Of a stretch of 64,000 nt of DNA, positions 1 to 64,000 are shown piece after piece. The translations under genes were made by a program, and so were the position numbers. Position 1 is the first letter of the stretch; every line of letters starts with the position of its first letter. The notes under the pieces are model-generated. The model saw only the letters and a program-made list of their open reading frames with translations, had not been told where the DNA came from and did not search any database. The DNA comes from Leucoraja ocellata (Eukaryota), in the NCBI GenBank assembly GCA_036785375.1, contig JAWMAR010000247.1, positions 1,302,001 to 1,366,000 of the forward strand. Reading direction: 5' to 3'.

Positions 1-1267
1 ACACACACATAGATTCAGGAATGCGTAAACAGGATTGGTTTGCATTTGGAAGCAGTATCTTTGAATATATTCAGACAGAATGTAGATTGGTTATTTTCTA
101 CTAGCCAATCGTAGTGCTTGTTAGTAGTTGCTCCGCCTAATATGCGTTTCATATTAACACGAGCTTGCCTACGCCATTCAGTATGAGTAGTTGCTAGGAA
201 CTGTAATGTCCTGCAGATCGATGCTGTAAGTAGATTTAATAAACATGTGTTTGACTCGACTCATTACATGGTGTCAGAGAGTGAGTCTTACCTACTCCGT
301 TCACGTTCATCGGGGGTTTTTTTTTGTTTTTATTCGTTTATGTGACGGTTATCTATCATAGCAAACTCGTCTCACCGCTTAAGTCCTCTGATCTTTGACT
401 CTGACATTCCTGAACGCTGGCATCTTTTCGAACGTGACTACACTCACTATGTTCGCATCATTCATCGCAACGACCCTCCTGATGTGCGTGCTTCTATATT
501 ACTCAACTTAGCTAGCCCAGAGGCAATGAATCGTGCCGACAATTTCACATTTGAGCCTGCCATTTTAGATGCTAATAGACAGGTCCTAGTGCCTGCAGAG
601 ACGATTGATGACCCTGCCGTCTTACTTGCAAAGGTCAGACAGTTGTGTGACCTGACCTCGAACTACATTATTGAACGTACCATGTTTTATGCTCGTATGC
701 AACAGATTGATGAACCGATTGAACGTTTTATCGGTGGCTTGAAACACATGGCGCCAGTTTTGTGATCTGGGCGATGAACTCATCCGTGACAAAATTGTTC
801 GAGGTATGCTTGATAGCAAGTTAAGGGATGAACTGCTCCGTAACACTGACCTGACCCATAATCAAGCCGAGCACGCCTGTCGGATTGCCGAGGTAACATC
901 TTCTCACACTAAGTCTGTGCCCTCCGGTCAGCGTTCGCAGTAAAGTGTCAATCTTACAGACACTTCCTCTTGTGACAGCCGCTCCCAGCCCTCCCCTGGC
1001 AGCAGAGAGGACCTGCTGTTCAATGTCAAAATTGCAACTATTTTCATGCTACAGGTCGACAGTACTGTATTGCTTATGGTAAAACCTGTCATTTCTGCAA
1101 GAAATTAAACCACTTAGCTACATGCTGCCGTTCCCGTGTGACTCAACCCGCTCCAAGGACAAGCCTGCACCTGTTACAACATGAGCTTGCTGATAACGAA
1201 TACCAAGAGCCTGAATTGCCATCCCCCGCTCAGCTCTCTCCTGGCGGGGAGGCAACTATTTCTCCTA

Positions 1268-1845
1268 GTCGCGTCCTCGCCCCCCACCTCGCGGCCTACC
1301 AGCTGGACCGGAGCGGCCTTTCCTGCCGGGGACCAGGAACCGGACCAGGGCTGCTACAGCGGCGGTGCAGTGCTGGAGTCACTGCGTCTTGGGCGATGCC
1401 TACCTGGGTCGTCGTTTGGAGCTCTGGAGCGTCGGGCCGCTGTTCCAACATTGTGGAGCTCTGGTGCGGAGAGCTTCCAACGCGGGCGGCGTTGAACAAC
1501 ATCGTGGAGTCCTGGGGCGACTTGCAGAGGGCCTACAGCAGCAGTCTCCACCCGGCGCGGACTGCGGACTTTGGAAGCCGCCGACTCCAGTAGGAGGGGG
1601 TCGACTGGTGTCCACGCCGCTGAGGACGTCCGGCAGCCCCGACGTCGGACTTGTATCACCCCGGCGAGCGGTCCTGGACATCGGGCCGCCCGTAGCTGCA
1701 ACTGCAGAGGGCTTGGGGAGGCCCTGACCATGAGGAACAGTGGAGGAAGAGACTGACTTTGGTGCCTTCCCACACAGTGGGAAACTTTGATTCTGCTGTG
1801 TGGGGATGTTTTATGTTAAATTCAATAGTGTGTGTTCTTTATACC
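1268..1845 (+). mobile_element. GC-rich non-autonomous repeat fragment nested in the Gypsy element
   Basis: Interrupts the gag-protease region. Carries GGTGCCTTCCCACACAGTGGGAAACTTTGATTCTGCTGTGTGGGGATG, also seen at ~62150-62200 (+) and ~31620-31670 (-). Boundaries approximate. Confidence 0.6.
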
Positions 1846-2467
1846 CTTTCTGGCTTAATCCCTCCCTTCACCACCTCCAGTTTAAATTCCAGTTGGAATA
1901 TTTTGGAGGACCCAAGAACCAAGAACGAGCAATTTGACCCTGAGCTAAACATGTTTGTGAATAACAGACCTTTGATCGCCAAGGTTGATACGGGCGCGAA
2001 ATGCAACGTCATCTCGTTATCAGAGTTTTAAAAAATTCGTAATGCTGAACATTTTTAAAAGGCCTCGGCCACGCTTCGGGCCTACGGGGATGTTCTACAC
2101 CCACTTGGACAAACTAATTAAAAATGCACCGTAGACACGCAGCCCCATACCCTGAAGTTTTATATCTTCAAGGGGGATTCAGAGACTTTGCTCGGTATCA
2201 ATGCATGCCACGATCTAGGCCTGGTATGCTTTAGCCGCGCTGTCCATCAACTTTTTCTCATTGACGGCCCCACTCAGCATGCACCCTCTCAATACAAAGA
2301 ACTGTTTAACAACGAGCTTGGCAAGTTGCCCCTCAAATACCACATTGTCGTTGATCCCAACATCACTCCTGTGGGCCGAGCACCACATAGTGTTCCGCAT
2401 GCCTTGCGTGACAGAGTACACAATGAACTCAAGCGGATGGTCTCCATGGGTGTTATAGCTGAAGTTA

Positions 2468-2953
2468 AGGGCCTGTCCCACCAGCATGCGATTGCATGCG
2501 TCTAGCGCGACCAAACGGAAGCGGAGTTTGCGCTAAGTTTGCTGTAAGTACGCGTAAAGTTCGCGCGTGACGTAATTTACGTCACACTCACCAATCAGCT
2601 GGGCAGGAGGCGGGCCGAATGAATTTGGACGTTGCACGACGTCGGGCGGTGACGTCAGCACGCAACGGTACGCCGGGCTGTGACGTCATCACTCAACGCC
2701 ACACGCTAGGCATACGCCGTCAAGACGCTGCGTACGCCCTCAATACGCCTGCGGGCCGACAGGCCGTTGGCGCACGGAATTTGTCGGACAGTGCAGGATT
2801 GTCGGAGTCCCGCGCGATGTCGGGACTAGCCCCGCACAACTCCATACACCTCCGCGGTTCGAAGTGGGACCGGCCCCACGCGACCGTACATCTCAAGCGA
2901 CCACGTTTGGACGCGCTAGATGCATGCAATCGCATGCTGGTGGGACAGGCCCT
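2468..2953. mobile_element. PIF/Harbinger-like palindromic MITE
   Basis: Long TIR AGGGCCTGTCCCACCAGCATGCGATTGCATGC.. / ..GCATGCAATCGCATGCTGGTGGGACAGGCCCT. TTA TSD at 2465-2467 and 2954-2956. Removing it restores the Gypsy RT frame EVTDPSDWVS. Confidence 0.9.
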
Positions 2954-5226
2954 TTACCGACCCATCTGACTGGGTTTCCACCATGGTGGTCGCAACGGGA
3001 AAAAAGGACATCCGTATCTGCATAAACCCCAGAGATCTTAACACTGCTATCAAACGTCCGTACTACCCTATGCGAACAGTAGAGGAAGTTGCTGCTCAAA
3101 TAGGCAACAGTGTTCTCCGTTCTGGATGTCAACAGCTCGTTTTGGCAGATTCCACTGAACCCAGGCTCGTCCAATCCTACTACGTTTAGCACCCCCTTCG
3201 GCCGCTACAAATTTCTGAGAATGCCCTTTGGCATCAACTCTGCCAGCAAAGTTTTCCAGCGCACGATGGAACAATTGTTTGCAGAGTATCCATGCACCAT
3301 CATTGTTGATGACATTCTCGTCTACGGAAGCGACCTGGCTGAACATAATGGCAATCTGAATAACACGAATGAAGACACGTTTTCTCAAGGGATGGTTTCA
3401 GACCAGACCCATTAAAAACTACAGCTATCACCGAAATGCCGGTTCCTACTGATGCTGTTTGGAAGTTCCTTGGAATGATCCTGGGGAAATTTATTCCCAA
3501 CCTCAGCGACATATCTGCCCCCCTGCAAGAACTGACACACAAAGATGATGAATGGTCCTGGTGTCCGCAGCACCAACGAGCTTTTGACACTCTCAAGTTG
3601 CAGCTCTCTGTACAGGACCAGTTCTCAGTAATGAAGATATCGTATGTTCTTACTGATTGTTTGAGCAGCCTAGCAGAACACACGGCTGCTAACGGGACTT
3701 TACAATTGCTGTCTGCAGTCCTCCGGCGTGGCTGGCCAGATAAACACAACACCCTGCTCACAATCCGCCCATACTTCCTGGTTCGCGACAAACTGGTGTT
3801 ACAGGATGGGATTATAGTTCAGGGCCACAAGGCAGTTGTCCCAGCTGTCCTTGGGGACAAGTACTTCAATGCCATCCACAGGGGCCACCCCGGCGTGGAG
3901 GCAATCCTACAATGGGCACAAAGCATTTTTTACTTGCCTGGTATGACCAAGTATATACGTGACAAAACCGAAGTCTGCGCTGTCTGTAAAAGCCTGACGC
4001 CACATCAGCATAAGCAGCCCTTACTGCTGCAACCGGCTCCTCTTCTCCCATGGCCCACATTAGCCACTGATATATTCGAATGGCACGGGAAACTATCTGG
4101 TTCTTGTTGACTCTTATTCAGGCTGGTTCGACATCGATTTACCCCAAAACATTACATCTGAAGCGGTTTTCGAGAAGTTGCAGCGTCACCTCTCCGTGCA
4201 CGGCTCACCAGCACGTATTCTGTCCGACAACGGCAGACAGTTCACCAGCCAATTTTTCAAACACTTTGCAAAACTATGGGACTTCCGACATATTACCAGC
4301 AGCCCTGAGTTCCCGCAGTCCAACGGACTCGCCGAACGAGCCGTCCAAACAGCAAAAACAACTAATGGAGCTGTCATATCTTGCAAAATCTAGACCAGCT
4401 CAACTTAGGGAACATTGCAAGGGATCCCATACTGGGTTCCCCAGCCCAACGACTGATGTCTCGCCAAACCCGTGCTCCCCTGCCTGTGTCCAAGCAGCTT
4501 TTGCAGCCACAAGTTTGTTCTCCGCCTGCGGTCCAGAAACTACAATTCAAACGCGATGCACAGAAACATTTTTTTTGACAAATCCAGTAAGCCACTTAAA
4601 CCTCTCACCAGTGGACAGGTGGTTCGCCTCCAGACCAGCGTTCTGTGACTCCATATCCAGATATCTCGCATTTTGTATACCCTCCCACTACCAGTCCTGT
4701 AGCTCCACTATCAGCGACCGTTTCCACCGCGGCCTCCCCGCGGCGTTTGGTGCCCAGCTTGCCTATCTCACCCCCTCCCCGCCCCATCGGGTCCCCGGTC
4801 ACATTCCCCCTTCCTCCCCGGTATCTTCCCCGATGAAAGGAGGTGAGGCGAATTCGTACCGCACACGTGCTGGACGGGTTAGCAGGCCACCCTTTAGATA
4901 CGGTGATTTTGTGTAACTATACAAACTTCGCCATCTGCGTTATTAACGTTCCGCTACCTATATTGCTTAGCCACCATGTTCCTATGTACTGATGCTTTCT
5001 TTTGTTTCTACAAGGAAAGATGGAGATTGATTATTTCCTTTAGCCAATCGTAGTGCTTGTTAGTGGAAAACTAAATGAACAGAAATGGAATGGAAAACCT
5101 GGTGTAATAATTATCTTGCTATTCATTTTACATATAGCCAATTGGATTTCAGCCATAGAAATTAACACTGGATGACCTGCAACAAGTAAAAGAACATATT
5201 GAAATGTTGCAATTTTTATTTGCTCA

Positions 5227-7808: not shown

Positions 7809-11239
<3,431 letters not shown>

Positions 11240-17416: not shown

Positions 17417-17635
<219 letters not shown>

Positions 17636-21278: not shown

Positions 21279-21332
21279 GGGGTGAGAGATTGCAACCTTC
21301 ACGTGGTCCACCCTGTTTTGACGAATGCAATC
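21279..21332 (+). ncRNA. Minimal HDV-like self-cleaving ribozyme (predicted)
   Basis: GGGGTGA-GA-GATTGCA-ACC-TTCACGT-GGT-CCACCCT-G-TTTTGA-CGAA-TGCAATC: P1 with G1.U wobble, perfect 7-bp P2, P3 ACC/GGT, L3 TTCACGT, J4/2 CGAA. Confidence 0.82.
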
Positions 21333-21426
21333 AACCCGGCCGGCGTGCACAATCAAATAAGATCAAATAGAACAAGTTGTCCTACAACTTTAGGCTGTGC
21401 ACGCCATACGCGAGAAAAAGAAGAAG
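21279..21426 (+). mobile_element. ~150-bp SINE/SIDE-like retroelement with a 5' HDV-like ribozyme and a (GAA)n RTE-type tail (copy A)
   Basis: 10-bp TSD ACTTGAACAT (21269-21278, 21427-21436). Same 5' end as the copy at 59958. 3' stem GGCGTGCACA/TGTGCACGCC. Confidence 0.88.
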
Positions 21427-22644
21427 ACTTGAACATATCTCTATTCCTTTGCTGTTACTTCTAAACAGTGGATTTAACAATACATCTGAGACCAATGTGA
21501 ACCATAACACTGTTTAAAGATAATGAATGCTGGCCTTGCCTGAAAAATGGAATGTAAAACTAAATGAAAAAAAATGGATTTGACTCACTATTTTTAGAGT
21601 GAAATATCAGGTGAAATGTCAGATGCTGCTCCCAAATTGGTCAGTAAATTATCTTGAAGTGTGACCTGGAGCTTACACACAGAATCAATTAATGTAGCTG
21701 TGCTACAGATTAACAGGTAGTCTCAATGATGAAAAAGCTGAGTGCCTTATTATAGCAGCAAAACATTCAGTCCAGAAGATCCTAAATTAATTCCCTGCTA
21801 TCATAAATCAAATAAGGAAATCTGAGATCTGAGTATTACAACTGATCTCAGCACAATTCTCATCTGCAGAGCAACAAAAAAAACATGAGTTGAGAAATGT
21901 ATTCCTGATTACCATGGATATAGGATGTAAACATGTACAAAAACAGAACAAATCCTGTTGAAAAACTGTCCACAAATGCTATCCACAATGCTATTAAGAT
22001 GCGTATTCAAAATGCATCCAGAGAACTTAAATGAAAGCAGACAGAATTCAATACCCATAAAACTGCAGCTTTGCAAAACCTTTAGAAGGCAAGATCATAA
22101 ATCTAACAATTGTAAAATAGATTCAATATATTACAAAAAGTGACGGTATTTTTTCACTATATTCAGCTATCATAAAATTGACCACCAAACTCAAAATTAC
22201 ATACGATAAATTTTGCACATTTGAGAAATAAAAAGCATTAAGATAAAATTACCAAAAGAATAAAACTGTAAAGGCATATTTAAAAGAGTTAGCACACAAA
22301 AACAGCATTCAATCTATACAATCGACCAAGAATACTTTTTCATATAAAGTTAGAAAATGTAATCTACAGTTGAGAAAATCTTTAAATTAAAGGGACGACA
22401 TGTCCTAAGATTGCCAACCAGAAGCTGTCAAAAACATGATGCTGCTGGTTTGCAGAAATGGTAAAGGATTTCAAATGGATCGAAAGGAACAACAAAATGG
22501 AGATATCACCTCGAAGTAAAGTAAAGCAAAATGTTTGTACTGACAAACAAGGGGAGAAAGAATGAGGGCAATTGTTAAAAAGTGACACGATTTAAAATAA
22601 ACCGTTACTATGGGTCTAAAAATTACATTAACTCAATAACATAA

Positions 22645-36660: not shown

Positions 36661-38240
36661 ATGTGGCCCGCAACCCAAAATCATCCGGCCCGCAGGCGTT
36701 TTGTTTTTCCGGTAATCATCCGGCCCGCATACTTCCTTCATCTCCGATACCTCCCGAGCCCGAAGCGCCCAGGCGCGGTGACGCAAGGAGGCCTGTGCTT
36801 GCGGCTGCAATTGTGGAGTGGCCGAGTGCTGGCTGTATCGCATCCTGCGCAAAGCCGCCAGCATCGCCACACACCTTCTGTGTCTGGGCTTCGCTGTCGG
36901 GATAGTTTGTCAATAGGCTGGGGACAAGTGAATGGGAGTATTTGAGCCATCGCCTTCAGGACAGACAAAGCGGTGGGATCTATGGGAACATGTGATTTGA
37001 TGCCTGCCATCCGGGGCGAGATGATGTGAACATATGATAGATGTGGCCCGCCATCCGTTCAGACATGCGTTACGGCCCCTATGTAGAACAAGGTGCCCAC
37101 TTGATAACCCCAATGATGTACAGGATTTGTTGGGGGTGGGTTTAAACAATTAAAATGTAGGCAGCTGGGGTTTTTTTGCATTTGAAGACATTTATTGTAA
37201 GTTGGTGTATTTAGGTAGATGATACTTTGGTTTTGGGCTTGGTTTTCTTAGTTGAGCATTTATCCTGGAGTTATAGCACCAAGTACTTTGTGTTTTAATT
37301 GTAATTTAGGAGTTCATCTACAACTGTAATTTTTTCTTGTCTAGTTCTGGAGACTTCCCAACAGAGTTCTCCAAATAGTATACACAAGAATCTTTGAATA
37401 TTTTCAAGGATGAGATAAATTAACAATAAACATTGAGATTAAAGATTTTTTAAAGTAGGCAGGTTTGCAGAGTTGAAATTGCAATTTGATTAGTTGCAAC
37501 CTGTACAAGTTCGAAGCACAGAACATTTGTAAATAAAGGGTAAAACATAATCCAACATGAATATTCAAAGATCCAGGATGAGATTTATCAGTACAAACAT
37601 TTTTGAGTCAATATATTTTTCTAGAGACCTAGAGCAGCATCTTCCAATTAACCCCATGTATTGAAATACTGATTAAAAAAAAGGTTTTGTGATTCCTGTA
37701 CACAGTTGTAAAACAAAGTATTTGCAAATACAGATCAACAAATATATTGTAATGGAGACGCAAGTAACTGCAGGAACTGGTTTCCAAAAAAAGACAAAGT
37801 GCTGAAGTACCTCAACAAGTCAGGCAGCATCTCTGGAGACCATGAAGTTTGGGGTCAGGACCTCCCCAACCCCAAAGGTCATCTCTCCATGTTCTCCAGA
37901 GATGTTGCTTGACCAACTAAAACTGGTTTGTTTAGTTATATTATTATGTGCTTATGAATTCCTGCTAATTTTATGATACATACATCATTTTATTCACCAG
38001 TCTAGATTTAATTCATCTTAGATCACGTTTTATGGATTCGACGTTTATGTACATGCTAATACTCTAAAATTAATTGGAGAACAAGATGAACCTTTTCCAA
38101 TTAGTTTCCACGCTCATGAAACCATTTCCAATGTAGTTTAACTAGTCCCCATGTTCTATTCTCCCACTTCCTTAAAAGTTGTCGTTATCCAATAATTCTC
38201 ATTCCACCAATGAAATATCCTTTCTCTCCAGATGCCACCT

Positions 38241-38310
38241 TCTTCTTCTTCTTGCATATGGCGTGCACAGCCTAAAGTTGTAGGATAACTTGTTCTATTT
38301 GATCGTATTT
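38241..38310 (-). mobile_element. 5'-truncated copy (C) of the ribozyme-headed SINE; lacks the ribozyme
   Basis: 11-bp TSD AGATGCCACCT (38230-38240, 38311-38321). Matches only the 3' half and (GAA)n tail of 21279-21426. Confidence 0.88.
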
Positions 38311-46825: not shown

Positions 46826-49800
46826 TATAGCGGCAGATTTTTATATTGTTCAAGAGATTAGTCCCTCAAGCCGCTAAATGGACAGCATGGTTAAGGGGAA
46901 TGTCTCCGTACACATGTGAGCTCACCATCAGAGACCTTCAGAGCTTCTTCACCTGAGTGGCTCTTGTGGCTAAAGGGATCAGGGGGTATGGAGAGAAGGC
47001 AGGAACAGGATACTGAGTTGGATGATCAGCCATGATCATATTGAATGGCGGTGCAGGCTCGAAGGGCCGAATGGCCTACTCCTGCATCTATTTTCTATGT
47101 TTCTATGTTTCACAGATAAGTCTTCCAAAACACTTTTGATTAATAAATTCTTTATTGTTGATGAAAACAATAAGGTACATCCAAACTTCTTCCGACTCGT
47201 TACTATAATCTTCATCGAACTCCAGCTTATTGCTTTAAACATTAGAAAACTCCTCGAGTCTCCATTACACTTCGCATGGTCGAAGGATAAACCTTCTCCA
47301 TGCATGTTCCAAACTAAACTAAAAACTAAGCTTCTGCGCAAGATACATAGCCCCAAATACGTCATAAATCCCACCCACAATATAACGGGCAGTCTAAAAT
47401 TTAAAGACACATTAATGACACGCAAAACAAGACAAATGGCCACTAATTGTTCCGAGTATATAATGAGGCAATTCCTAATAAACATAAAAAAAGTAGCCAT
47501 GAAGGCTTAACATATATCAAAAGTAAAAAATCAGGGAATAGAACCCCGTGGCTCCTCGTCGGGAAATTGAACCCCGGTCTACCGCATGACAGGCGGGGAT
47601 ACTAACCACTATACCAACGAGGAAAAAATAGCATGCACTATATATCCGTAATCAAAATTCTTCATCGACTCTTGCATCCTCACTTTCGCCTTCTAGAAGC
47701 AAGTATAACTTGATTATTAATCTTATTAAAACACTGGTTTTAGTTCAAAATCGTACCGTGCGCACCAAACCCTTAAAATCAGGCATGATACCCAGTATAT
47801 AGTCCAAAACATAACAGTCCAAAGCTTTGATAGCATGAAACGTCTTCCCCATGTCCGATCAACTCATGGATGTGTTGTAACAGTAATGTTGAAGTGTGAA
47901 AATCCTTCAAAGGAATAACAGGATCTTTAGCAATAAAGTTTACCGTTAGGTTTGATTTAATTTCTGAATCATTAGCTGAGATTTCAAATCCCAGCTCGAG
48001 CTTTGGCCTTTCTCTGTCTGGCTTGCAGAGAGACGTTAGTTCATTGATCCATCTCTTATCGCTTAAAAAGCGGTTCACTGTCAGTTCTCTGGAAAACTCA
48101 TTTGCAGAATTTTCTTCTGTGTTAACATATTTCAGTTGTACAAAATTAGTAACTACCAATGATCTTTCCATTGGCAGATTGTTTTTGTCCAAATCTAACT
48201 CTCTGGTATCTTTGGCTCTATTACTAGTGGAATGCTTTCACAATTGTTGCTGATCCACTTGGAAAGTGTGTATCCTCCCTTATTGCAAAGAGAAGTCAGA
48301 TGTTCTACTGGTAGAATTGCTTCCTGCTCAGTAGACATGGATTTTAAACAATCATCCATGTAGAAATTATTTTTCAAAGAGATTCTTATTTCATGAAATT
48401 TAGTATTCTCATCAAACTTGCGTTTCAAATTCTGGGTACATTGTTCTGCCATACGACGATTATTCGGCAAACTAACACTTTCTTGTTTGAAAGGTAAGTC
48501 CACACAATAGTGTCCGTCAGTCTTTATTGAGTAGTTCATAATATCCATGAACTTCAACTCTTCATTCAACGTCTCTTCAGATTCCTTGCTGGTACTTTCC
48601 TTGAAGTCATGATTGTATGGCTTCATCACCGGCTTTTCTAATTCATCAGTAGATATTTGATTAACAGCAATACTAGGATAGTTCTTCTGATTCTCGTTTT
48701 CGTTGTTCCTTTTCAAGGAGCCATAGATAACCCATCCAAGTCGGGTTTTCATAGCATATGGTCCATCGCCTTGGCTCCTAACAATCTGTGTAGATTCCAA
48801 TGCCTTCAAAACATTTGTTCTGATAAGTAGATCAACACTTGAATTTATTTCAGATATCTTGACATCCTTCAGGTAAAGCCATTGTTTCAAGTCTTCATGT
48901 CTCGGTATATTTTGACGACCAACAGGCATGGTTCCATGTGTAAACATTCAGATATTGGTATAAAATTATCTTCCAGACTGGATATCTCCATACTAGTAAT
49001 GTAATGACTCATGCTCTCTTTCTCTTTAGTCATGGTATGTAATCGAATCTTAGTCTCTTCTCCTGTGATGTTCAGCCTTCTCGTCAGGTTTTCTGTGTAA
49101 AAGGTAGTCGAACGTCCGTGATCCAGAAAAGCATATGTTTGCAACACTGTATTCGTCTTGCTGTTCCTTACCTGCACTGGTAAGATAGAAAAGTTACAAG
49201 CTTCAACCCTGGCCCCAATATGAGCAGTTACTTGAGGCGAGGTGATAGCATCACTAGTAGTTGGCTTCTTCTGTTCTGTTTGCTCCGGTTCATCCTCTTC
49301 TATTTGCTCTGATAGCTCATCATCCGTTTGTTCCAGTTCTTCTTCCCAGTACTTTGGTAGCTCTTCTTCAGTGTGAAGTGCTTCAGGATGATATTGCCTG
49401 CACTTATAACAAATCATAGGACTCTTACAGTCTCTCACCATATGTCCTTTTTCCAAACATCCAAAACCGATTACCTTCTCTTTGAAGAAATCCATCTTTT
49501 CTTCATATTTTTTCATCTTGAATCTTCGACACCATCTTATGGTGTGACCAACTTCATCACATAACAAACAAAATACAATTTGCTTGCAAGTAGACACATT
49601 TCCTTTCTTTCTATCAGTCTTTTCCACAGGTCTGGTTGTGATAGCAAAACTACTTCTCTTAGGTTCTGATATTTCTTCAGTTTTGGTAAAGGTAGAACCT
49701 TTGTTAGTTGCAATCTTCAATAGTCCTGTAGTGTTGCTCTAACAAGTACCCTACTTCCCTGTCCAAGAATTCCACCAGGTCTGGTAGCTGGCTACTTGGT

Positions 49801-52513
49801 TCCTCTTATCCATTATTCCGCCTGCTTCATATCTCCACCTTTCTCTCAGTCTTCTGGGCAACTTGCTAATGATGATTCTAGTAATGTTTGGAAGATTCAT
49901 TTCCTCCATGTGGCTGAGATTTCTCATTGAGCTGCAACAATCTCTCAGAAATATTGCATAATCACTCAATGCCTCCCCATCTTCTGGCTTGATTCCTTTC
50001 CAAGCACGGGCCTTCTCCATGTATGTGTTTACAATCCTTTGTTCATCCCCAAAACGTTCTTTAAGTAATCTCACCTTTTTATAGCCTTGGCTGCCTTGCT
50101 CCTTTTGACAACTTTCTACAAGTACCTTGCTTGAGTCTGTGCACCGGGTCTCGGAAAAGTGTGGTCCGCTATTGGTTTGTCCCGAGCATCCACTGACGCT
50201 CCAATAGTAGTTGGTTTCGATCTAGCACCCATTTGCTGAGATGAAGTTTCACCCATCATCCTCTGCTCCAATGGGTTTTCAAAGCCATGAAATCCGGTTG
50301 ACCTCGATTGTGGAATTGATCCGACTGCTAATTCACTTCGAGCAATCTTTCTTCCCAAATCGGAGTTAATCACCTTTGATGTTCTAGAACTGCATCTTAA
50401 CCCCTCACTTTCTAGTAGCTTCTTCTTGTCGCGTCATCTCTTCTTCTTGTCTTCTTATCTCTTCTTTCCTCCGCTCAATTTCATGTTTCATCTTTATGGC
50501 CTCTGCTTCTATTGCGAGAGTGGCTAGGTCAGCTTCAACTCCCAATCGAGCAGAAGCCCTTGATACCAAACTGGCTGAAGAACCAGATTTATGTCTTGAT
50601 CGTCGTGGAGATACATTGGAGATATTATCTCATTGTGTAATTTCATCTTCCATTCTGGCACCTTGTTGCTTCGCACTTCCAGCTACTAAGCTCGTACGTT
50701 ATGGTATAATTTCAGATAACCACTCCTCTGCCTCCTTCTTGAAACCATTGAATATTTTCAACCTGTCTTCCTCCCATTGGATTTGTCTTCTGCGTTCTTC
50801 CCGAGACGACTGTGAACACAGCAGTACATCTTGTTTCTTGCTAACCTCCTGGCAGAGGTTCCATAGTTCCATATTAGATTTCACCTTGATCACATTCTGT
50901 TCTGATTCCATTAGTTTCTTCTGTTTCTCAATTAATCTGGTAACCTGTTTCCATAATTTGTTTCTCTCGTTCTCGGTCTCTTTCAAGCAGGCAGCTTGTG
51001 AATTATCTGTTTCTTCTCGCTACATGAGTTTAAGTTGTCTTATTGGTCTTTCATCGCCACCTCGTGGTCCCTCAGGCTTGGCACTTTCTTCATCTTCTGG
51101 ATCCATAATTTTAAAGAGGGCTTGGCAGGTCGCCAAGTGTTTAAATTTAATGAACATAGTCCTCTGCTTGTAGTTCTAATTTTGTTTTATGATAATAATA
51201 ACAATAAGTTTATTTATATAGCACATTTATAGTCAATTTTCATTGACCCCAAAGTGCTTTACATAATTTAAAAATCAGTTCCATACAAAGCATAAAGATG
51301 GGTTAACAAAATAATAAAATGCATAAACAGAACACAACATGTAACATAAACATCCACCACAGCATTCATCACTGTGGTGGAAGGCACAAAAAATTTTGGC
51401 CGTCCTCCTCCATTCCCCCCCCCCCGTGGACAAGACCAGAGTCCAGAGTCCAGTCCAGGATCGGTCTTTCCTCACCGGAGACCGCGGCTTCAAGATTGTG
51501 TAGGCCGCAGGCCGGCGGTTGAGATTTAAAGTCCCAGTTTTGTCAACATTTCCATCAGAACCATAACAAACTGATATTGTAGAGAACATCTCTCCAACAT
51601 CCATGGGCTTAAAGATGACGATAATTTAAAAGGAATGTGTGTTTATCAAAAGATTCAAAACAATCCAAGGTCGGTCTCGTTTCTCCAGACATACTGGAAA
51701 AAACATCTTTCTGGCTCTTCTTCAGAAGTCTTTTTTAAACTAAAACGTAGCTTCAAATTCAAAGAAATATAGTAGATCTTTACTCACAATTCTGTGATAT
51801 GTCTTCAGATAAGTCTCGATGTTGTCGATAGACCTCAAGGCCTTCTCTGGCCGAGATCTATTGTCTTCAGTTCCTTGGTTGGAACCGGAATTCTGGCCAA
51901 ACCTCTCAGAGATCTTAGTCAAATCTTCTGTCCCAATATCTGGGAATGGTATTTTCTTCAGTTCCTCGCTGGAACCAGTCTTCTGTCCCAATCTCTGAGA
52001 CTCTATTTACCCCTTTGCTGGAGGTATTCTTCGACTTAATGGAGTGGCAGATGTTCATATCGTTCAAGAGATTAGTCCCTCTAGCCGCTAAATGGACAGC
52101 ATGGTTAAGGGGAATGTCTCCGTACGCATGCGAATTCACCATCAGAGACCTTCAGAGCTTCTTCACAGATAAGTCTTCCAAAACACAGTCTTTTGATGAA
52201 TAAATTCTATATTGTTGATGAAAACAATAAGTTACATCCAAAATACTTCCGACTCGTTACTATAATCTTTATCGAACTCCAGCTTATTGCATTAAACAGA
52301 AAACTCCTCGTGTATTGTTACACTTCACATGGTCGAAGGGTAAACCTTCTCCATGCTCATTCCAAACTAAACTAAAAACTAAGCTTCTGCGCAAGATTCA
52401 TAGCCCCAAACGCACCCCAAAATACGTCATGAATCCCATATAACGGGCAGTCTAAAATTTAAAGACACATGCCATCATTAATGACACGCAAAACAAGCCA
52501 AATGGCCACTACA
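46826..52513 (-). mobile_element. BEL/Pao LTR retrotransposon, internally deleted, both LTRs present, 5-bp TSD
   Basis: TSD AAGTT at 46821-46825 and 52514-52518. 5' LTR 52040-52513 (TGT..CA); 3' LTR ~46826-47445 with a CR1-tail insert at 46953-47110. Gag LLKERFGDE, zinc knuckles, protease YAFLDHG, KTRLGWVIYG, RT NFYMDDCL, C-terminal GLVRTVR..IIKLYLLLE. Confidence 0.92.
47549..47623 (-). tRNA. tRNA-Asp(GTC) copy with genome-encoded CCA inside the BEL element (gene or retropseudogene)
   Basis: TCCTCGTTGGTATAGTGGTTAGTATCCCCGCCTGTCATGCGGTAGACCGGGGTTCAATTTCCCGACGAGGAG-CCA. Perfect 7-bp acceptor stem, one anticodon-stem mismatch. Followed by a repeated T-arm and TTTTTT. Confidence 0.88.
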
Positions 52514-59060: not shown

Positions 59061-59957
59061 CTGGAGAAAAATAAAGCTGTATTCAATTTCAGAGGAAAAT
59101 GATTTGACAAAACCAGGAAACAAGTAAAGTTGGACCTAATCAAGCCATACAATGAACACCATAAATTTGTAAATATCTTGTTAATTTAGCGTACAGTAAT
59201 TTGTTAAATATAATTTTCTATTCAAAAAACATTTTGATTACATCCTTGGTACCTGCATGATTTCATATGAAATATCAAAACTGCTCTTCCATTTTATATC
59301 TACTTGTTACACCGCAGAAGTGATTGGTTTCAACGCAACTACTAAAGACAAGGTAAAAACTCAACTACTGTAGTGAAGGATATCATCCTCGACAGCTATC
59401 TGCGATTTTATCCCATCTCTCAATGGTTCCCTCACTACAAATTGTGCCCAGATGATACTTCACAAGGCAGACCAATTTTCTGTTCCATTTTCAAACATTG
59501 TAGCCAAATTTTAAATATTTAGATTTACTATTTCTTTTTATCCACTAGCTCAGTTCTGATCACACATCATCAGCCTGAAACATTAACTCTGTCCTCTCTG
59601 CACAGCTGCTGCCTAGTCGAGCATTTTTCCATTTTTATTTCAGGTATCAAGCATCTATAGTTTTTGTATTTTGGCCTATGTTTATGTTTACCCACTGGGT
59701 AGTTTTCACATTTTGTCTTGCCTCATTGCTTCTCATAATCTATGAGTTACTTTTATTAAATGTAGTTGCTGTCCCACACCACATTATATTCTACCAATGA
59801 TCCTTAAAACATACTTCTGTGTGTCTGTTACTCAGCAGAATATATGCTACATCATGATTTGTCAAATTATTGAGATCTCATGTCTGTTAATGGTAATATA
59901 GTTAAGAGTAAACCAACTGTTGAACTTTGTAAGTTAATGGTATTCATGGATAAATCT

Positions 59958-60011
59958 GGGATGGGAGATTGCAACCTTCACGTGGTCCGCTCTGTTTCGA
60001 CGAATGCAATC
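59958..60011 (+). ncRNA. Minimal HDV-like ribozyme, copy B (P1 partly decayed)
   Basis: GGGATGG-GA-GATTGCA-ACC-TTCACGT-GGT-CCGCTCT-G-TTTCGA-CGAA-TGCAATC. Confidence 0.75.
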
Positions 60012-60058
60012 AACCTGGTGTGCACATTCAAATAAGATCAAATAGAGCAAGTTGTCCT

Positions 60059-61543
60059 GGAGCGTATCGTTGCGTCACAACTTCATTCCCACCTCCTTGC
60101 GTATAACCTATTTGAACCCCTCCAATCTGGCTTTCGCCCCCTCCATAGCACAGAAACTGCTCTCCTCAAAGTCCTCAATGACCTCCTCACCTCTGCTGAC
60201 ACTGGTTCCCTCAACATCCTCATCCTCCTCGACCCGAGTGCAGCCTTCGATACAGTGAACCATAACATCCTGCTTACCAGACTTGGGGACCTTGGCATTG
60301 AAGGTTCTGCACTCAGCTGGCTCTGTTCCTACCTTTCCAACATATCCCACTTCATCTCTCTCCATAACCACACCTCTGCTACAGCCACAGTCACGCAAGG
60401 CGTTCCCCAAGGCTCCATACTTGGCCCCCTCCTCTTCATCATCTACATCCTCCCCCTTGGTCAGATACTCCGCCACTTCAACCTGGACTTCCACTGTTAC
60501 GCCGATGACACCCAGATTTACCTCGGCACCAAATCCCCCCACAACCCCCCCCCCCCCCCCTCTCCCATATCAACTCGTTTGTCAGCTATAAAAACCTGGA
60601 TGCAACATAACTTCCTTAAACTCAACAGCGATAAAACAGAATTCCTCCTCATAGGCTCCAAATCCACTCAGCAAAATGAATAACCCCACTCTCACCATCG
60701 ACGGCACCACTGTCTCCCCAGGCCCGCAACCTTGGCGTGATCTTTGATTCCACCCTCTCCCTTGAGCCTCACATCCGCCATGTCATTAAAACCTCCTTCT
60801 TTCACCTCCACAACATCGCCAAAATCAGACCCTCTCTCACACCTCCCGTTGCTGAAAGACTCATCCATGCCCTCATCTCCTCCCGACTGGACTACTGCAA
60901 CTCACTTCTGCTTGGCATCAGCTCCACCTACATCAACCGACTCCAACTGGTCCAGAACGCAGCCGCCGGACTCATCACCCACACCAAATCCTGGCATCAC
61001 ATCACTCCAGTCCTCAAACAACTTCACTGGCTTCCCATCTCCCACCGGATCGCCTACAAAATCCTGGTCCTCACCTACAAAGCCCTCCACCATCTGGCCC
61101 CCCCATATCTCACTGACCTCCTCTCCCCCTACCAACCCTCATGGTCCGTCAGATCCACATCAGCCGGTCTCCTCTCCATCCACAAGTTCAACCTCCGCAG
61201 TTTTGGGGACAGAGCCTTCTCCAGGGCAGCTCCCAGGCTCTGGAACTCCCTCCCCCAACTGATCCGCAATTCCGTGTCCCTCACCATCTTCCAGTCCCGC
61301 CTCAAGACCCATCTCTTCACCTCTGCCTATCCTTAGCCCCACGTCGCCTTCCCTTTTCATCTGTGCTTGAATTGCCTCATATTGTGTTTTGAATTGAATT
61401 CTGTCTTTAATTTGTGTACTAGTCATGTCTCTACTATTTATTTCATTCCGCTTACATGTTTTTCCTCTACTTGCTAATTTTTTGTAAGGTGTCCTTGAGA
61501 CTCTTGAAAGGCGCCCATAAATAAAATGTATTATTATTATTAT
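60059..61543 (+). mobile_element. L2-clade LINE, 5'-truncated
   Basis: QSGFRPLHSTETALLKV; GVPQGSILGPLLFIIY; FHCYADDTQIY; LKLNSDKTE; SRLDYCNSLL; HITPVLKQLHWLP; GDRAFSRAAPRLWNSLP. (ATT)n tail. Confidence 0.93.
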
Positions 61544-61640
61544 TACAACTTTAGGCTGTGCACGCCATATGCAAGAAGACGATGGACAAATCTGAATGCG
61601 CATATCCAGAAAACAATAATGGGAGGGGGGTTAATGTTAC

Positions 61641-61818: not shown

Positions 61819-64000
61819 CTGAATGAAACAAGGAAGGATTTGAATAAACCAACAAATGTTCTTAATACTGCAATATTCAGAGAAACTCATAGCATCTGGA
61901 AACAACTCTGCTACAACTGGAGTATATGTAACAGAAGAATGTATGGATCAATTTAACATAAAAGTACAAGGAACTGCTATTTGCCAATAAAATAGGAAAT
62001 CAGCACCCCAGTGCATATTATTCAAAATAATTTGGTATGCCAACATCAATGCACTAATGTTACCTTCCAGAGAGTGGTTGCGACCTGAACTCAGTGTCAT
62101 GGTGGGAGAAGCAGAAACTCTCACCGCATTTGTGGAGGAGGATGACTAAATTTGGAGCCTTCCCTCACAGTGGGAAACTTTGATCCCGCTGTGTGGGGAT
62201 GTCTGTGTTAAAGACTATTGTGTTCTGTGCTCTTTATTATTCGTATGGCTGTATGGCGACTACTAACAATGTCTGCCGGAAGGGAGAGTGAATGCTGGAG
62301 CGACTAGCTGCCGCTGCTCTCTCTCCGAATTATGTATTATTGCTGTATATGTTGTTTTTGTTTCATTTTAATTATATATTTGTAATTTGCTTGTTTTAAC
62401 TGTAAGGTGGCCTTGGGTGTTCTGAAAGGCTCCCATAAATAAAATGCATTATTATTTCAGTAAAACGGATATGTACTTGAAGAGCTGCACCACTACAAGC
62501 CAATACCAGAGAGAAGCACATAAGTGCAACAGAATTCTTAAAATGCTTTCAAATGAACCTTATGGTTCAATGTAGCAAGTCCAAAAAAGAGTGTGGGTGT
62601 TGGAGATGAACCTCAGGGGTGAATATGGGCAAGTGGAATGTGGGAGAGCAATAGACAAGAGACAATAGGTGCAGGAGTAGGCCATTCGGCCAGTCGAGCC
62701 TGCATCGCCATTCAATGTGATCATGGCTGACCATCCACAATCAGTACCCCGTTCCTGCCTTCTCCCCATATCCCCTGACTTGATCCTGATTTGGTTAAAT
62801 TTAGCATAACTATGAAAAAAGGAGAAAGTAGGAATAAAAATTCAATATTGGGCAAAGACCAAAATATGCTTTGGTTAAAAAAGTGGACAGGAAATGACCA
62901 CTTGAAAGAAAACCAGTGTCACATAAGGGAGACGCTTGAGCATGATTCACACCGTTCGTTCCAAAAAATAGTAAAGGGCACTTCTCAAATCTTCAAGCCT
63001 CAAGGATTTCAAACATAAAGACCAGGCCAAAAAGGCTAGTTCTACATGTAGCTTTGTTACAAAACCTACCATCAGTGGCGCTACAGATCTGCCACTGCCT
63101 GTGCGTGCGATTCCGGAGGCATTGGGGGGGGGGGGGGGCACGATTAAATGCAGGTTTATATTGGTTGTTGGAGAGGGATTTCCTTGGGCTGCTAGCTGAT
63201 GAAGAAAAATTGTTCACGTTTCCGTCCCCGTTTAAAAACAAAAAATTTGCTGGACGATTGAGTCGCTGGATTGAAGTTAAACGTGACTTCAAACGCCTTC
63301 AACATCACGGATAGCAATATCAGGACAAAACAAAAGGTATGTAGTTTATTTAACATATTATCTTGCTTTTTGGTGTGGCTTCATTTTAATTTTATGATGC
63401 GAAAAATTTTATTTAGGCCCACATACGAATTGGCCGTGTCTTGCTTGCTGATATGGGCTTAAAATTTATGGCAACGGCAACATTCCAATCGATCACATTC
63501 CAGAAACATCCACTGTCAAGATAATCAAATTCATTCTTTTTTGGCACAATCATGTCATAAGAACATCTAAATCATTTATATTTTACGTTATTGTCTATCC
63601 ATGATCAATATTTTCATACTAAATATCCACAGTACAGTTTTAGCCAGATGTATTGGGCAAAAATAAAGATTTTGATTATCTTGAGAGTGGATATTTCTGG
63701 ATTAATTTATGGGAATTCCTTCCATTTGGCATATAAATTCATGACAAAGTGAGATTTAAAAATCATGTTATATTGTGAATTCTAATGTGAATGGGATCAG
63801 TTTATTTGTTATTAGGATACTTGGGCTATTTTAATTTTTTTGCCTTTTCTTAAGAAATGGATAGATGTTTAGATCTAGTAATTGAATTTAGATGAATTTA
63901 ATTAGATGAATTTAATTGATTTGATGAAACTGATGAATATTATTTTTTTGTTGGGTATTTACTATTTGTTTTAGCGTTTAACTTTATTATTTCTACCATT

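Follow-up and report, generated by a model that had tools for sequence, protein, structure and literature searches.

Copy B, the split element extending from 59958 to 61593 (+) in the 64-kb window (that is, the whole stretch of Leucoraja ocellata DNA that was analysed), is quite probably a decayed element composed of the two ends of a Vingi-like LINE. Its RNA would have been cut before the first base, G1, by a predicted ribozyme and retrotransposed by a LINE protein, and an L2-type LINE inserted into it later. The element measures ∼140 nt, and its halves are separated by the later LINE. It is bracketed by a 12-bp TSD with the left repeat, ATGGATAAATCT, at 59946..59957 (+) and the right repeat, ATGGACAAATCT, at 61582..61593 (+), the two matching at 11 of 12 positions. 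The left half opens with a predicted HDV-like ribozyme head of 54 nt (59958..60011, +), delineated by motif decomposition in the register of the CPEB3 ribozyme. The remainder of the left half, 60012..60058 (+), is LINE-derived 5' sequence up to about position 77, and it provides the 5' arm of an outer helix (60017-60026) as well as the 5' arm (60049-60055) and loop (60056-60058) of an inner hairpin. The L2-type insert, at 60059..61544 (+), consists of a 5'-truncated, frameshifted RT fragment, a 3' UTR and a (TTA)n tail, and has no TSD. The right half (61545..61581, +) corresponds to the 3'-terminal ∼40 nt of the Vingi-like LINE and contains the end of the ORF with a TAG stop, a short 3' UTR, the 3' arm of the outer helix (61557-61566) and an (AAG)n tail.

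Two relatives of copy B are located within the window. Copy A (21279..21424, +) is full-length, unsplit and flanked by its own TSD, and its P1 displays the LINE-type U5-A32 pair together with G7A. Copy C (about 38240..38310, -) is 5'-truncated, lacks the ribozyme and carries the TSD GGTGGCATCT. A strict HDV descriptor run on both strands of the window matched copies A and B only. The earlier note had described copies A and B as independent insertions with a common start, and this description is borne out: their TSDs differ, both begin at G1, and P2, P3, L3 and J4/2 are identical in the two copies, with P1 differing as claimed. A twin of copy B on contig C357 (L002/L165), probably the other haplotype, is 98.7% identical and has the identical L2 junction; it reads TTTG where copy B reads TTCG (59996-59999), a difference ascribed to CpG decay. 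Contigs of run X21 connect unique flanking sequence with the head of copy B (59860-59981) and with the tail of copy A (21387-21500), and thus that organism carries both insertions.

Both A and B are antisense to the OGT (O-GlcNAc transferase) gene, which occupies 5.2-17.6 kb on the minus strand with exons near 17554, 15923, 11287, 8050 and 5274; exon 1 was not located. A tRNA-Asp(GTC) gene (47549-47623, -) has 124-nt direct repeats on either side, at 46829 and at 52043, and the reading frames bracketed by these repeats are ones we take to be LTR-retrotransposon-like. The broken reading frames at 346-4913 are presumably LTR-retrotransposon-like as well.

The head had been read from the start as HDV-like, and a double pseudoknot of P1, P2 and P3 does fit as a predicted fold, with one P1 mismatch in copy B. 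In copy B, P1 is formed by 59958-64 and 59987-93, with G3.U34 and U5.G32 wobbles and an A4xC33 mismatch, P2 by 59967-73 and 60005-11, and P3 by 59974-76 and 59984-86 with L3 at 59977-83. J1/4 (59994-95) leads into a vestigial P4 (59996-60000), which is followed by the predicted catalytic cytosine, C44, at 60001. The copy carries the G1.U pair, U20 and G25, the P1.1 pair C22-G37 and the cytosine that opens J4/2 (C-N-A-A). Counted from G1, U20, U21, C22, G25, G37 and U38 bear the same numbers as in CPEB3, for which passages of PMC4836649 describe the roles of the core bases and a P1.1 of one G-C and one U-U pair. Given this register, C44 is predicted to be the catalytic cytosine and P4 to comprise 5 nt only. 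The variable base of J4/2 is the second one, and the cytosine is constant. Of the P4 with a UUCG loop that had been proposed, the letters stand (TTCG at 59996-59999) and the stem does not: a 2-bp GU/AC stem would consume G37, needed for P1.1, and the catalytic C44. Such a UUCG-capped P4 was accordingly ruled out, and at most one pair (U38-A43) is possible. As modelled, the 54-nt head resembles the P4-less minimal HDV-like ribozymes.

An Rfam search of copies A and B returned no match at E<=1, and the Rfam RF00622 model did not match the head of copy B. The fold is intact in 24 of 71 copies, and head and body are almost equally conserved, the head slightly more so (divergence 0.035 vs 0.042). 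In the minimum free energy fold of the whole element G2-U5 pair with 56-59 and replace P1, as computed by a program that cannot form pseudoknots. Folding z-scores of the head are 0.3 to 1.1, significance being reached by the 3' half alone (z -4.0). PolyA RNA reads, from a library type weak for cleavage, mostly read through across G1; in the ∼6% of one polyA run that was read there was no pile-up of starts at G1 and no strand-specific loss of read-through. The P1 of copy B contains one mismatch and three wobbles, counting G1.U36. Given that mismatch and an additional P1 wobble, its ribozyme is probably impaired, and the copy is probably unable to move.

The source of both ends of the element is a LINE. 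Some of the tails are preceded by coding sequence that ends in a Cys/His motif, with the stop codon within the shared tail. One full-length parent LINE (L130/L133) measures ∼3.1 kb when two nested inserts are not counted, starts at G1 and has an 8-bp TSD. A second, internally shortened copy (L254/L255) has an 11-bp TSD and the same G1 start and tail. A single ORF encodes APE, RT and the C-terminal Cys/His motif, and its fragments match the APE and RT families. The 120 homologs listed are mostly ∼1000-aa single ORFs on ∼3.2-kb contigs, and no RNase H domain appears in them among the matches listed. In the passages of PMC13708176 that concern it, Vingi has a single ∼1000-aa APE+RT ORF, no RNase H and a length of ∼3.1 kb. 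By its predicted protein and size (single ORF, APE+RT, no RNase H, about 3 kb), the parent LINE fits this description. No named Vingi protein is among its homologs, and the link runs through a sister-family head that resembles Vingi-2_Gav. RTE, guessed from the tail as the partner LINE, was dropped given the C-terminus and homologs of the parent. Note that the heads of L130 and L254-L256 have an AUG at base 47, within J4/2-P2, that shares the frame of the LINE ORF; a second in-frame AUG follows 20 codons later. At L277:979-1048, L333:1322-1393, L131 and L160 the heads are inverted with respect to the adjoining LINE body, which suggests 5' inversions during insertion.

The short element comprises bases 1-77 and the final ∼40 bases of the LINE, joined by a linker of ∼20 nt for which the LINE showed no match. 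Its bases 1-77 are 84-92% identical to the LINE heads and its last 37-46 nt are 89-100% identical to the LINE 3' end, with no ORF between the ends. The linker and the LINE-derived tail together form the 7-bp inner hairpin, at the loop of which the L2 of copy B sits. The outer helix, which joins the 5' and 3' parts, can be formed with 8 bp in the LINE and is lengthened to 10 bp by A61G in the major subfamily. The traits of a SINE are present, namely shortness, a LINE-derived tail and TSDs. The SINE label of the earlier note nevertheless has to be withdrawn: a Pol III head is missing, and the head comes from a Vingi-like LINE instead. ARAGORN and Rfam searches found no tRNA, 5S, 7SL or snRNA head in the element. 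No exact A or B box, as these patterns are generally given, occurs in it, and the near-matches are in the wrong order. A Pol III SINE was rejected on these grounds. The LINE-shared ends and the lack of a Pol III head thus make the element, judged by its sequence, a bipartite non-autonomous LINE rather than a SINE, that is, an internal-deletion derivative of the 3.1-kb Vingi-like LINE. The category of bipartite non-autonomous LINEs is treated in passages of PMC5786205 (section 23) and PMC4494074.

The family is large. Exact searches of the genome find a 20-mer core of the head at 8,502 places and a tail 22-mer at 4,763, and neither reversed control occurs anywhere (0 places each); these places are not copy numbers, since the assembly contains duplicate loci (12 of 100). 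The 5' ends were sampled from the first 100 tail-anchored places, which required the exact tail 22-mer and lay on two contigs; 88 were non-redundant, and these comprised 84 short elements and 4 LINE ends. The alignment starts at base 1 in 59 of the 84 short copies and within bases 1-3 in 70. The head could be located in 73 short copies; a TSD, mostly of 10-12 bp, flanks 59 of these, and 14 have none. The sharp peak of 5' ends at G1 that had been anticipated beforehand is indeed observed: 40 of the 59 TSD-defined ends lie at G1 (12 of these share G letters with the TSD), 10 lie at -1 and 9 elsewhere. Reads and contigs of other runs (4 and 3 of 24 listed runs) likewise have their loose ends clustered at G1/-1. 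A tandem array on contig C1 (L091-L094, G000:C1:19.26-19.43 Mb) has ∼1.95-kb units with one copy per unit and identical flanks, and reads of the array variant are frequent in polyA run X24 (46 and 62 loose-end reads). The array was rejected as a source locus; its identical flanks denote tandem amplification.

The insert within copy B, 1,486 bases in length, sits between CCT and ACAAC at the 3' loop edge of the AAGTTGT/ACAACTT hairpin. Its protein fragment matches RVT_1 in a profile search (E=6e-29). We take it to be an L2 from its protein C-terminus and tail. All 18 of 18 other L2 copies match from 60056 onward and have different sequence upstream of the junction, and therefore CCT represents a 3-nt microhomology and no TSD is present. 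A single TSD pair encloses both halves of copy B and the L2, so the L2 arrived second, in keeping with the earlier reading that it inserted at the loop of the inner 3' hairpin after copy B was in place. The divergence comparison that had been called for is consistent with a younger L2 (about 2.5-4% of sites differ from its nearest other copies, compared to a median of 5.0% for short copies against their majority and 5/105 for copy B), with the choice of best hits biasing the L2 towards youth and the numbers being small. It is very improbable that copy B and the L2 instead arose together as one chimeric transcript or template-switch product. The absence of a TSD around the L2 and the 3-nt microhomology at its 5' junction would suit such an origin, but it requires two switches, the L2 retains its own tail abutting the right half, and the junction is found, among 40 scored hits, in copy B and its 98.7%-identical twin only. 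At 62401-62456 is the short 3' end of a further L2-type copy.

The remaining difference between copies A and B lies in P1, for which the earlier note had proposed an ancestral GGGGCGG/CCGCCCT that decayed at its CpG. The genome pattern counts contradict this, with 4,161 GGGGTGG heads and 88 GGGGCGG heads in otherwise equal patterns, and the parent LINE heads have T5 and A32. G32 accompanies C5 in 69 of 88 cases and T5 in 76 of the first 100 listed, 15 of which are tandem-array copies. The frequencies are alike, and thus there is no C5-G32 covariation. Five other CpGs, unfixed by the search, are intact in 36/69 to 55/71 copies (52-77%), so that 98% decay at one site is implausible. The P1 3' strand is readable in 14 of 30 LINE loci, representing 10 independent insertions, and all have A32 and a J4/2 of C-U-A-A. 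An older short subfamily has A32, T45 and A61 as in the LINE (exactly so in 5 of 71 copies). Because the LINE heads have A32 and T5 is in the majority, the ancestral P1 is reconstructed as GGGGUGG/CCACCCU with a U5-A32 pair, the U5.G32 wobble having arisen in the major subfamily. A SINE with the C5 ancestor is also very improbable: C5 does occur at 88 places and would complete a perfect helix with G32, and the related family L333 has C-G at that pair, but C5 amounts to 2% while the other CpGs persist, it does not covary with G32, the LINE heads read A32 in 14 of 14, and there is no Pol III head. The C5-G32 form is thereby refuted for the ribozyme-headed short family. That the consensus P1 can pair holds good, since the family majority and the LINE heads pair fully. 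The A4 and T34 of copy B are non-CpG transitions that the majority of other copies lack (position 4 is G in 189 of 200 and position 34 is C in 350 of 358), and they arose later than the ancestral P1. What the copy B locus adds is mainly a clean nested insertion, along with the corrected ancestral P1.

Since copies of one family cannot show covariation, it was sought in relatives. The foreign set comprised 80 Vingi-like loci from public metagenome records, 19 of which were examined upstream of the ORF. A first strict descriptor gave 0 matches in the 80 loci, and a relaxed version with a 7-bp P1 gave 0 of 19. A further relaxed descriptor, allowing a 6-bp or damaged P1, matched 4-5 of the 19 upstream windows and none of the 19 reverse strands, and shuffled sequences gave means of 0.005-0.025; the relaxation followed inspection of the heads by eye, and these controls are post hoc. 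The other 14 of 19 upstream windows are without a match, some having truncated or mutated heads, and two further foreign heads are inverted and adjoin RT matches. Across four families or subfamilies, pairs changed on both sides number 6 of 7 in P2, 1 of 3 in P3 and 3 in P1, as counted on a hand-checked decomposition, a MAFFT alignment of 12 heads having misaligned P4 and J4/2. P1.1 also switches, being C21-G38 in one foreign family and U21/U38 in the short element. Against an Rfam HDV model, L333 and L297 score weakly (E 0.05 and 0.09). By this count of paired changes, other Vingi-like families keep the predicted fold through compensatory changes.

On the basis of these comparisons a life cycle can be proposed. 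Transcription of source copies would be due to read-through or to an internal promoter, and the modelled 54-nt head likely releases the RNA by cleaving immediately 5' of G1. Cleavage during transcription would leave a defined, nuclease-resistant 5' end, so that most insertions would be full length. The LINE protein would then bind the 3' end, with the 5'-3' helix joining both ends, and prime reverse transcription. It is likely that this protein copies the short element back into DNA; mobilisation in trans is suggested by the shared ends, tail and TSD length. The masters may have succeeded one another from the LINE head (U5-A32, U45, A61) through an old short subfamily that retained these states to the major subfamily (G32, G45, G61), each change keeping or extending the predicted fold.

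The alternative is a head that survives as a ribozyme relic or acts chiefly as an internal promoter, protein-binding or translation element, with the G1 peak marking the start of transcription rather than cleavage. An internal promoter starting at G1 would give the same peak, and the RNA reads do not pile up at G1. Likewise, P4 is only 5 nt, there is a pairing that competes with P1, the LINE has its in-frame AUG within J4/2-P2, and Pr77 of L1Tc has a dual function according to passages of PMC4035085. We nonetheless consider this reading unlikely. The bases of the catalytic core and G1.U are kept across families whose stems covary, J4/2 varies at its second base and not at the cytosine, and HDV-like ribozymes lacking P4 are active, as stated in parts of 10.1101/2023.06.13.544163.

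A self-cleaving head in Vingi would also bear on the CPEB3 ribozyme. The cut-off of the CPEB3 model, RF00622, is passed at 56 of 59 scored places in the genome, and 0 of 14 control genomes match. In 9 of 20 fetched loci a Vingi-like ORF is directly downstream of the match; these ORFs, with about 33% identity to the closest homolog of the parent LINE, represent a sister family. The match closest to the CPEB3 consensus, L357:1501-1571 (-), nearly reproduces it, without most of the P1 5' strand; it is flanked on either side by a 10-nt direct repeat, and no ORF match follows it. That the RF00622 matches are orthologues of the mammalian intron was rejected: this closest match is on C104, and all 7 CPEB ZZ-domain matches are on other contigs. 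L343, L348, L352 and L354 carry a third head type of this genome, one that also passes RF00622, and the body behind it is short or truncated. The 5' end of Vingi-2_Gav is printed in the supplement of PMC5786205; in a hand count of its bases 2-74 with the P4 interior left out, 52 of 54 positions agree with the Rfam CPEB3 consensus. From this resemblance, a shared ancestry of the Vingi heads and the CPEB3 ribozyme is likely, and the direction would be from element to host intron. We lean towards the wider proposal that the Vingi clade starts with HDV-like ribozymes, that the P4-less 54-nt version of the short family is active and has seeded thousands of self-cleaving sites, and that the CPEB3 ribozyme is an exapted Vingi 5' end. 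The literature passages located on Vingi and ribozymes assign no ribozyme to Vingi. Passages on HDV-like SINEs, sharks, lamprey and lancelet, and the origin of CPEB3 describe neither the element nor a Vingi origin, a prior Repbase description being possible. Passages of PMC5753468, PMC10919898, PMC8256844, PMC13635239, PMC6765202 and PMC3391268 likewise contain no such element and no Vingi origin of CPEB3.

If the proposal is true, Vingi would join the LINE clades headed by ribozymes, a natural eukaryotic minimal HDV-like ribozyme with thousands of variants would be available for assay, and the CPEB3 ribozyme would have a testable origin. There would also be a bearing on Vingi-based gene-writing templates, in which, according to passages of PMC13708176, the native 5' UTR is kept.

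Several known systems share features with the short element. Vingi elements and their bipartite derivatives (PMC5786205, PMC13708176) have the ∼1000-aa APE+RT ORF, the ∼3.1-kb length and the internal deletions. The CPEB3 ribozyme (RF00622; PMC4836649) shares the L3 sequence UUCACGU, the core numbering, the one-pair P1.1 and CGAA in J4/2. The short-element head differs from it in its P1, P2 and P3 sequences and in lacking P4, and the near-copies of CPEB3 are the heads of the sister LINE. Minimal HDV-like, or theta, ribozymes also lack the P4 domain, but they come from gut phages and lie beside tRNA 3' ends, P4-less forms being reported almost only from phages (10.1101/2023.06.13.544163), whereas the present head is on an animal retroelement without an adjacent tRNA, the only tRNA of the window being that at 47549-47623. 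NARTc/L1Tc and RIME/ingi of trypanosomes (PMC4035085) each pair a LINE with a short deletion derivative that opens at base 1 with an HDV-like ribozyme and retains the LINE 3' end, and the R2 SIDEs (PMC3414825) are likewise short internal-deletion derivatives with such a ribozyme at base 1 and a LINE 3' end. In contrast to these, the element described here resides in a vertebrate, has a Vingi-like parent without RNase H, is ∼140 nt in length, exists in thousands of copies and has a predicted ribozyme of 54 nt in which P4 is almost gone. By analogy, the short element would work most like NARTc/RIME and the R2 SIDEs, and what is new is the Vingi-like parent, the vertebrate host and the minimal predicted ribozyme.
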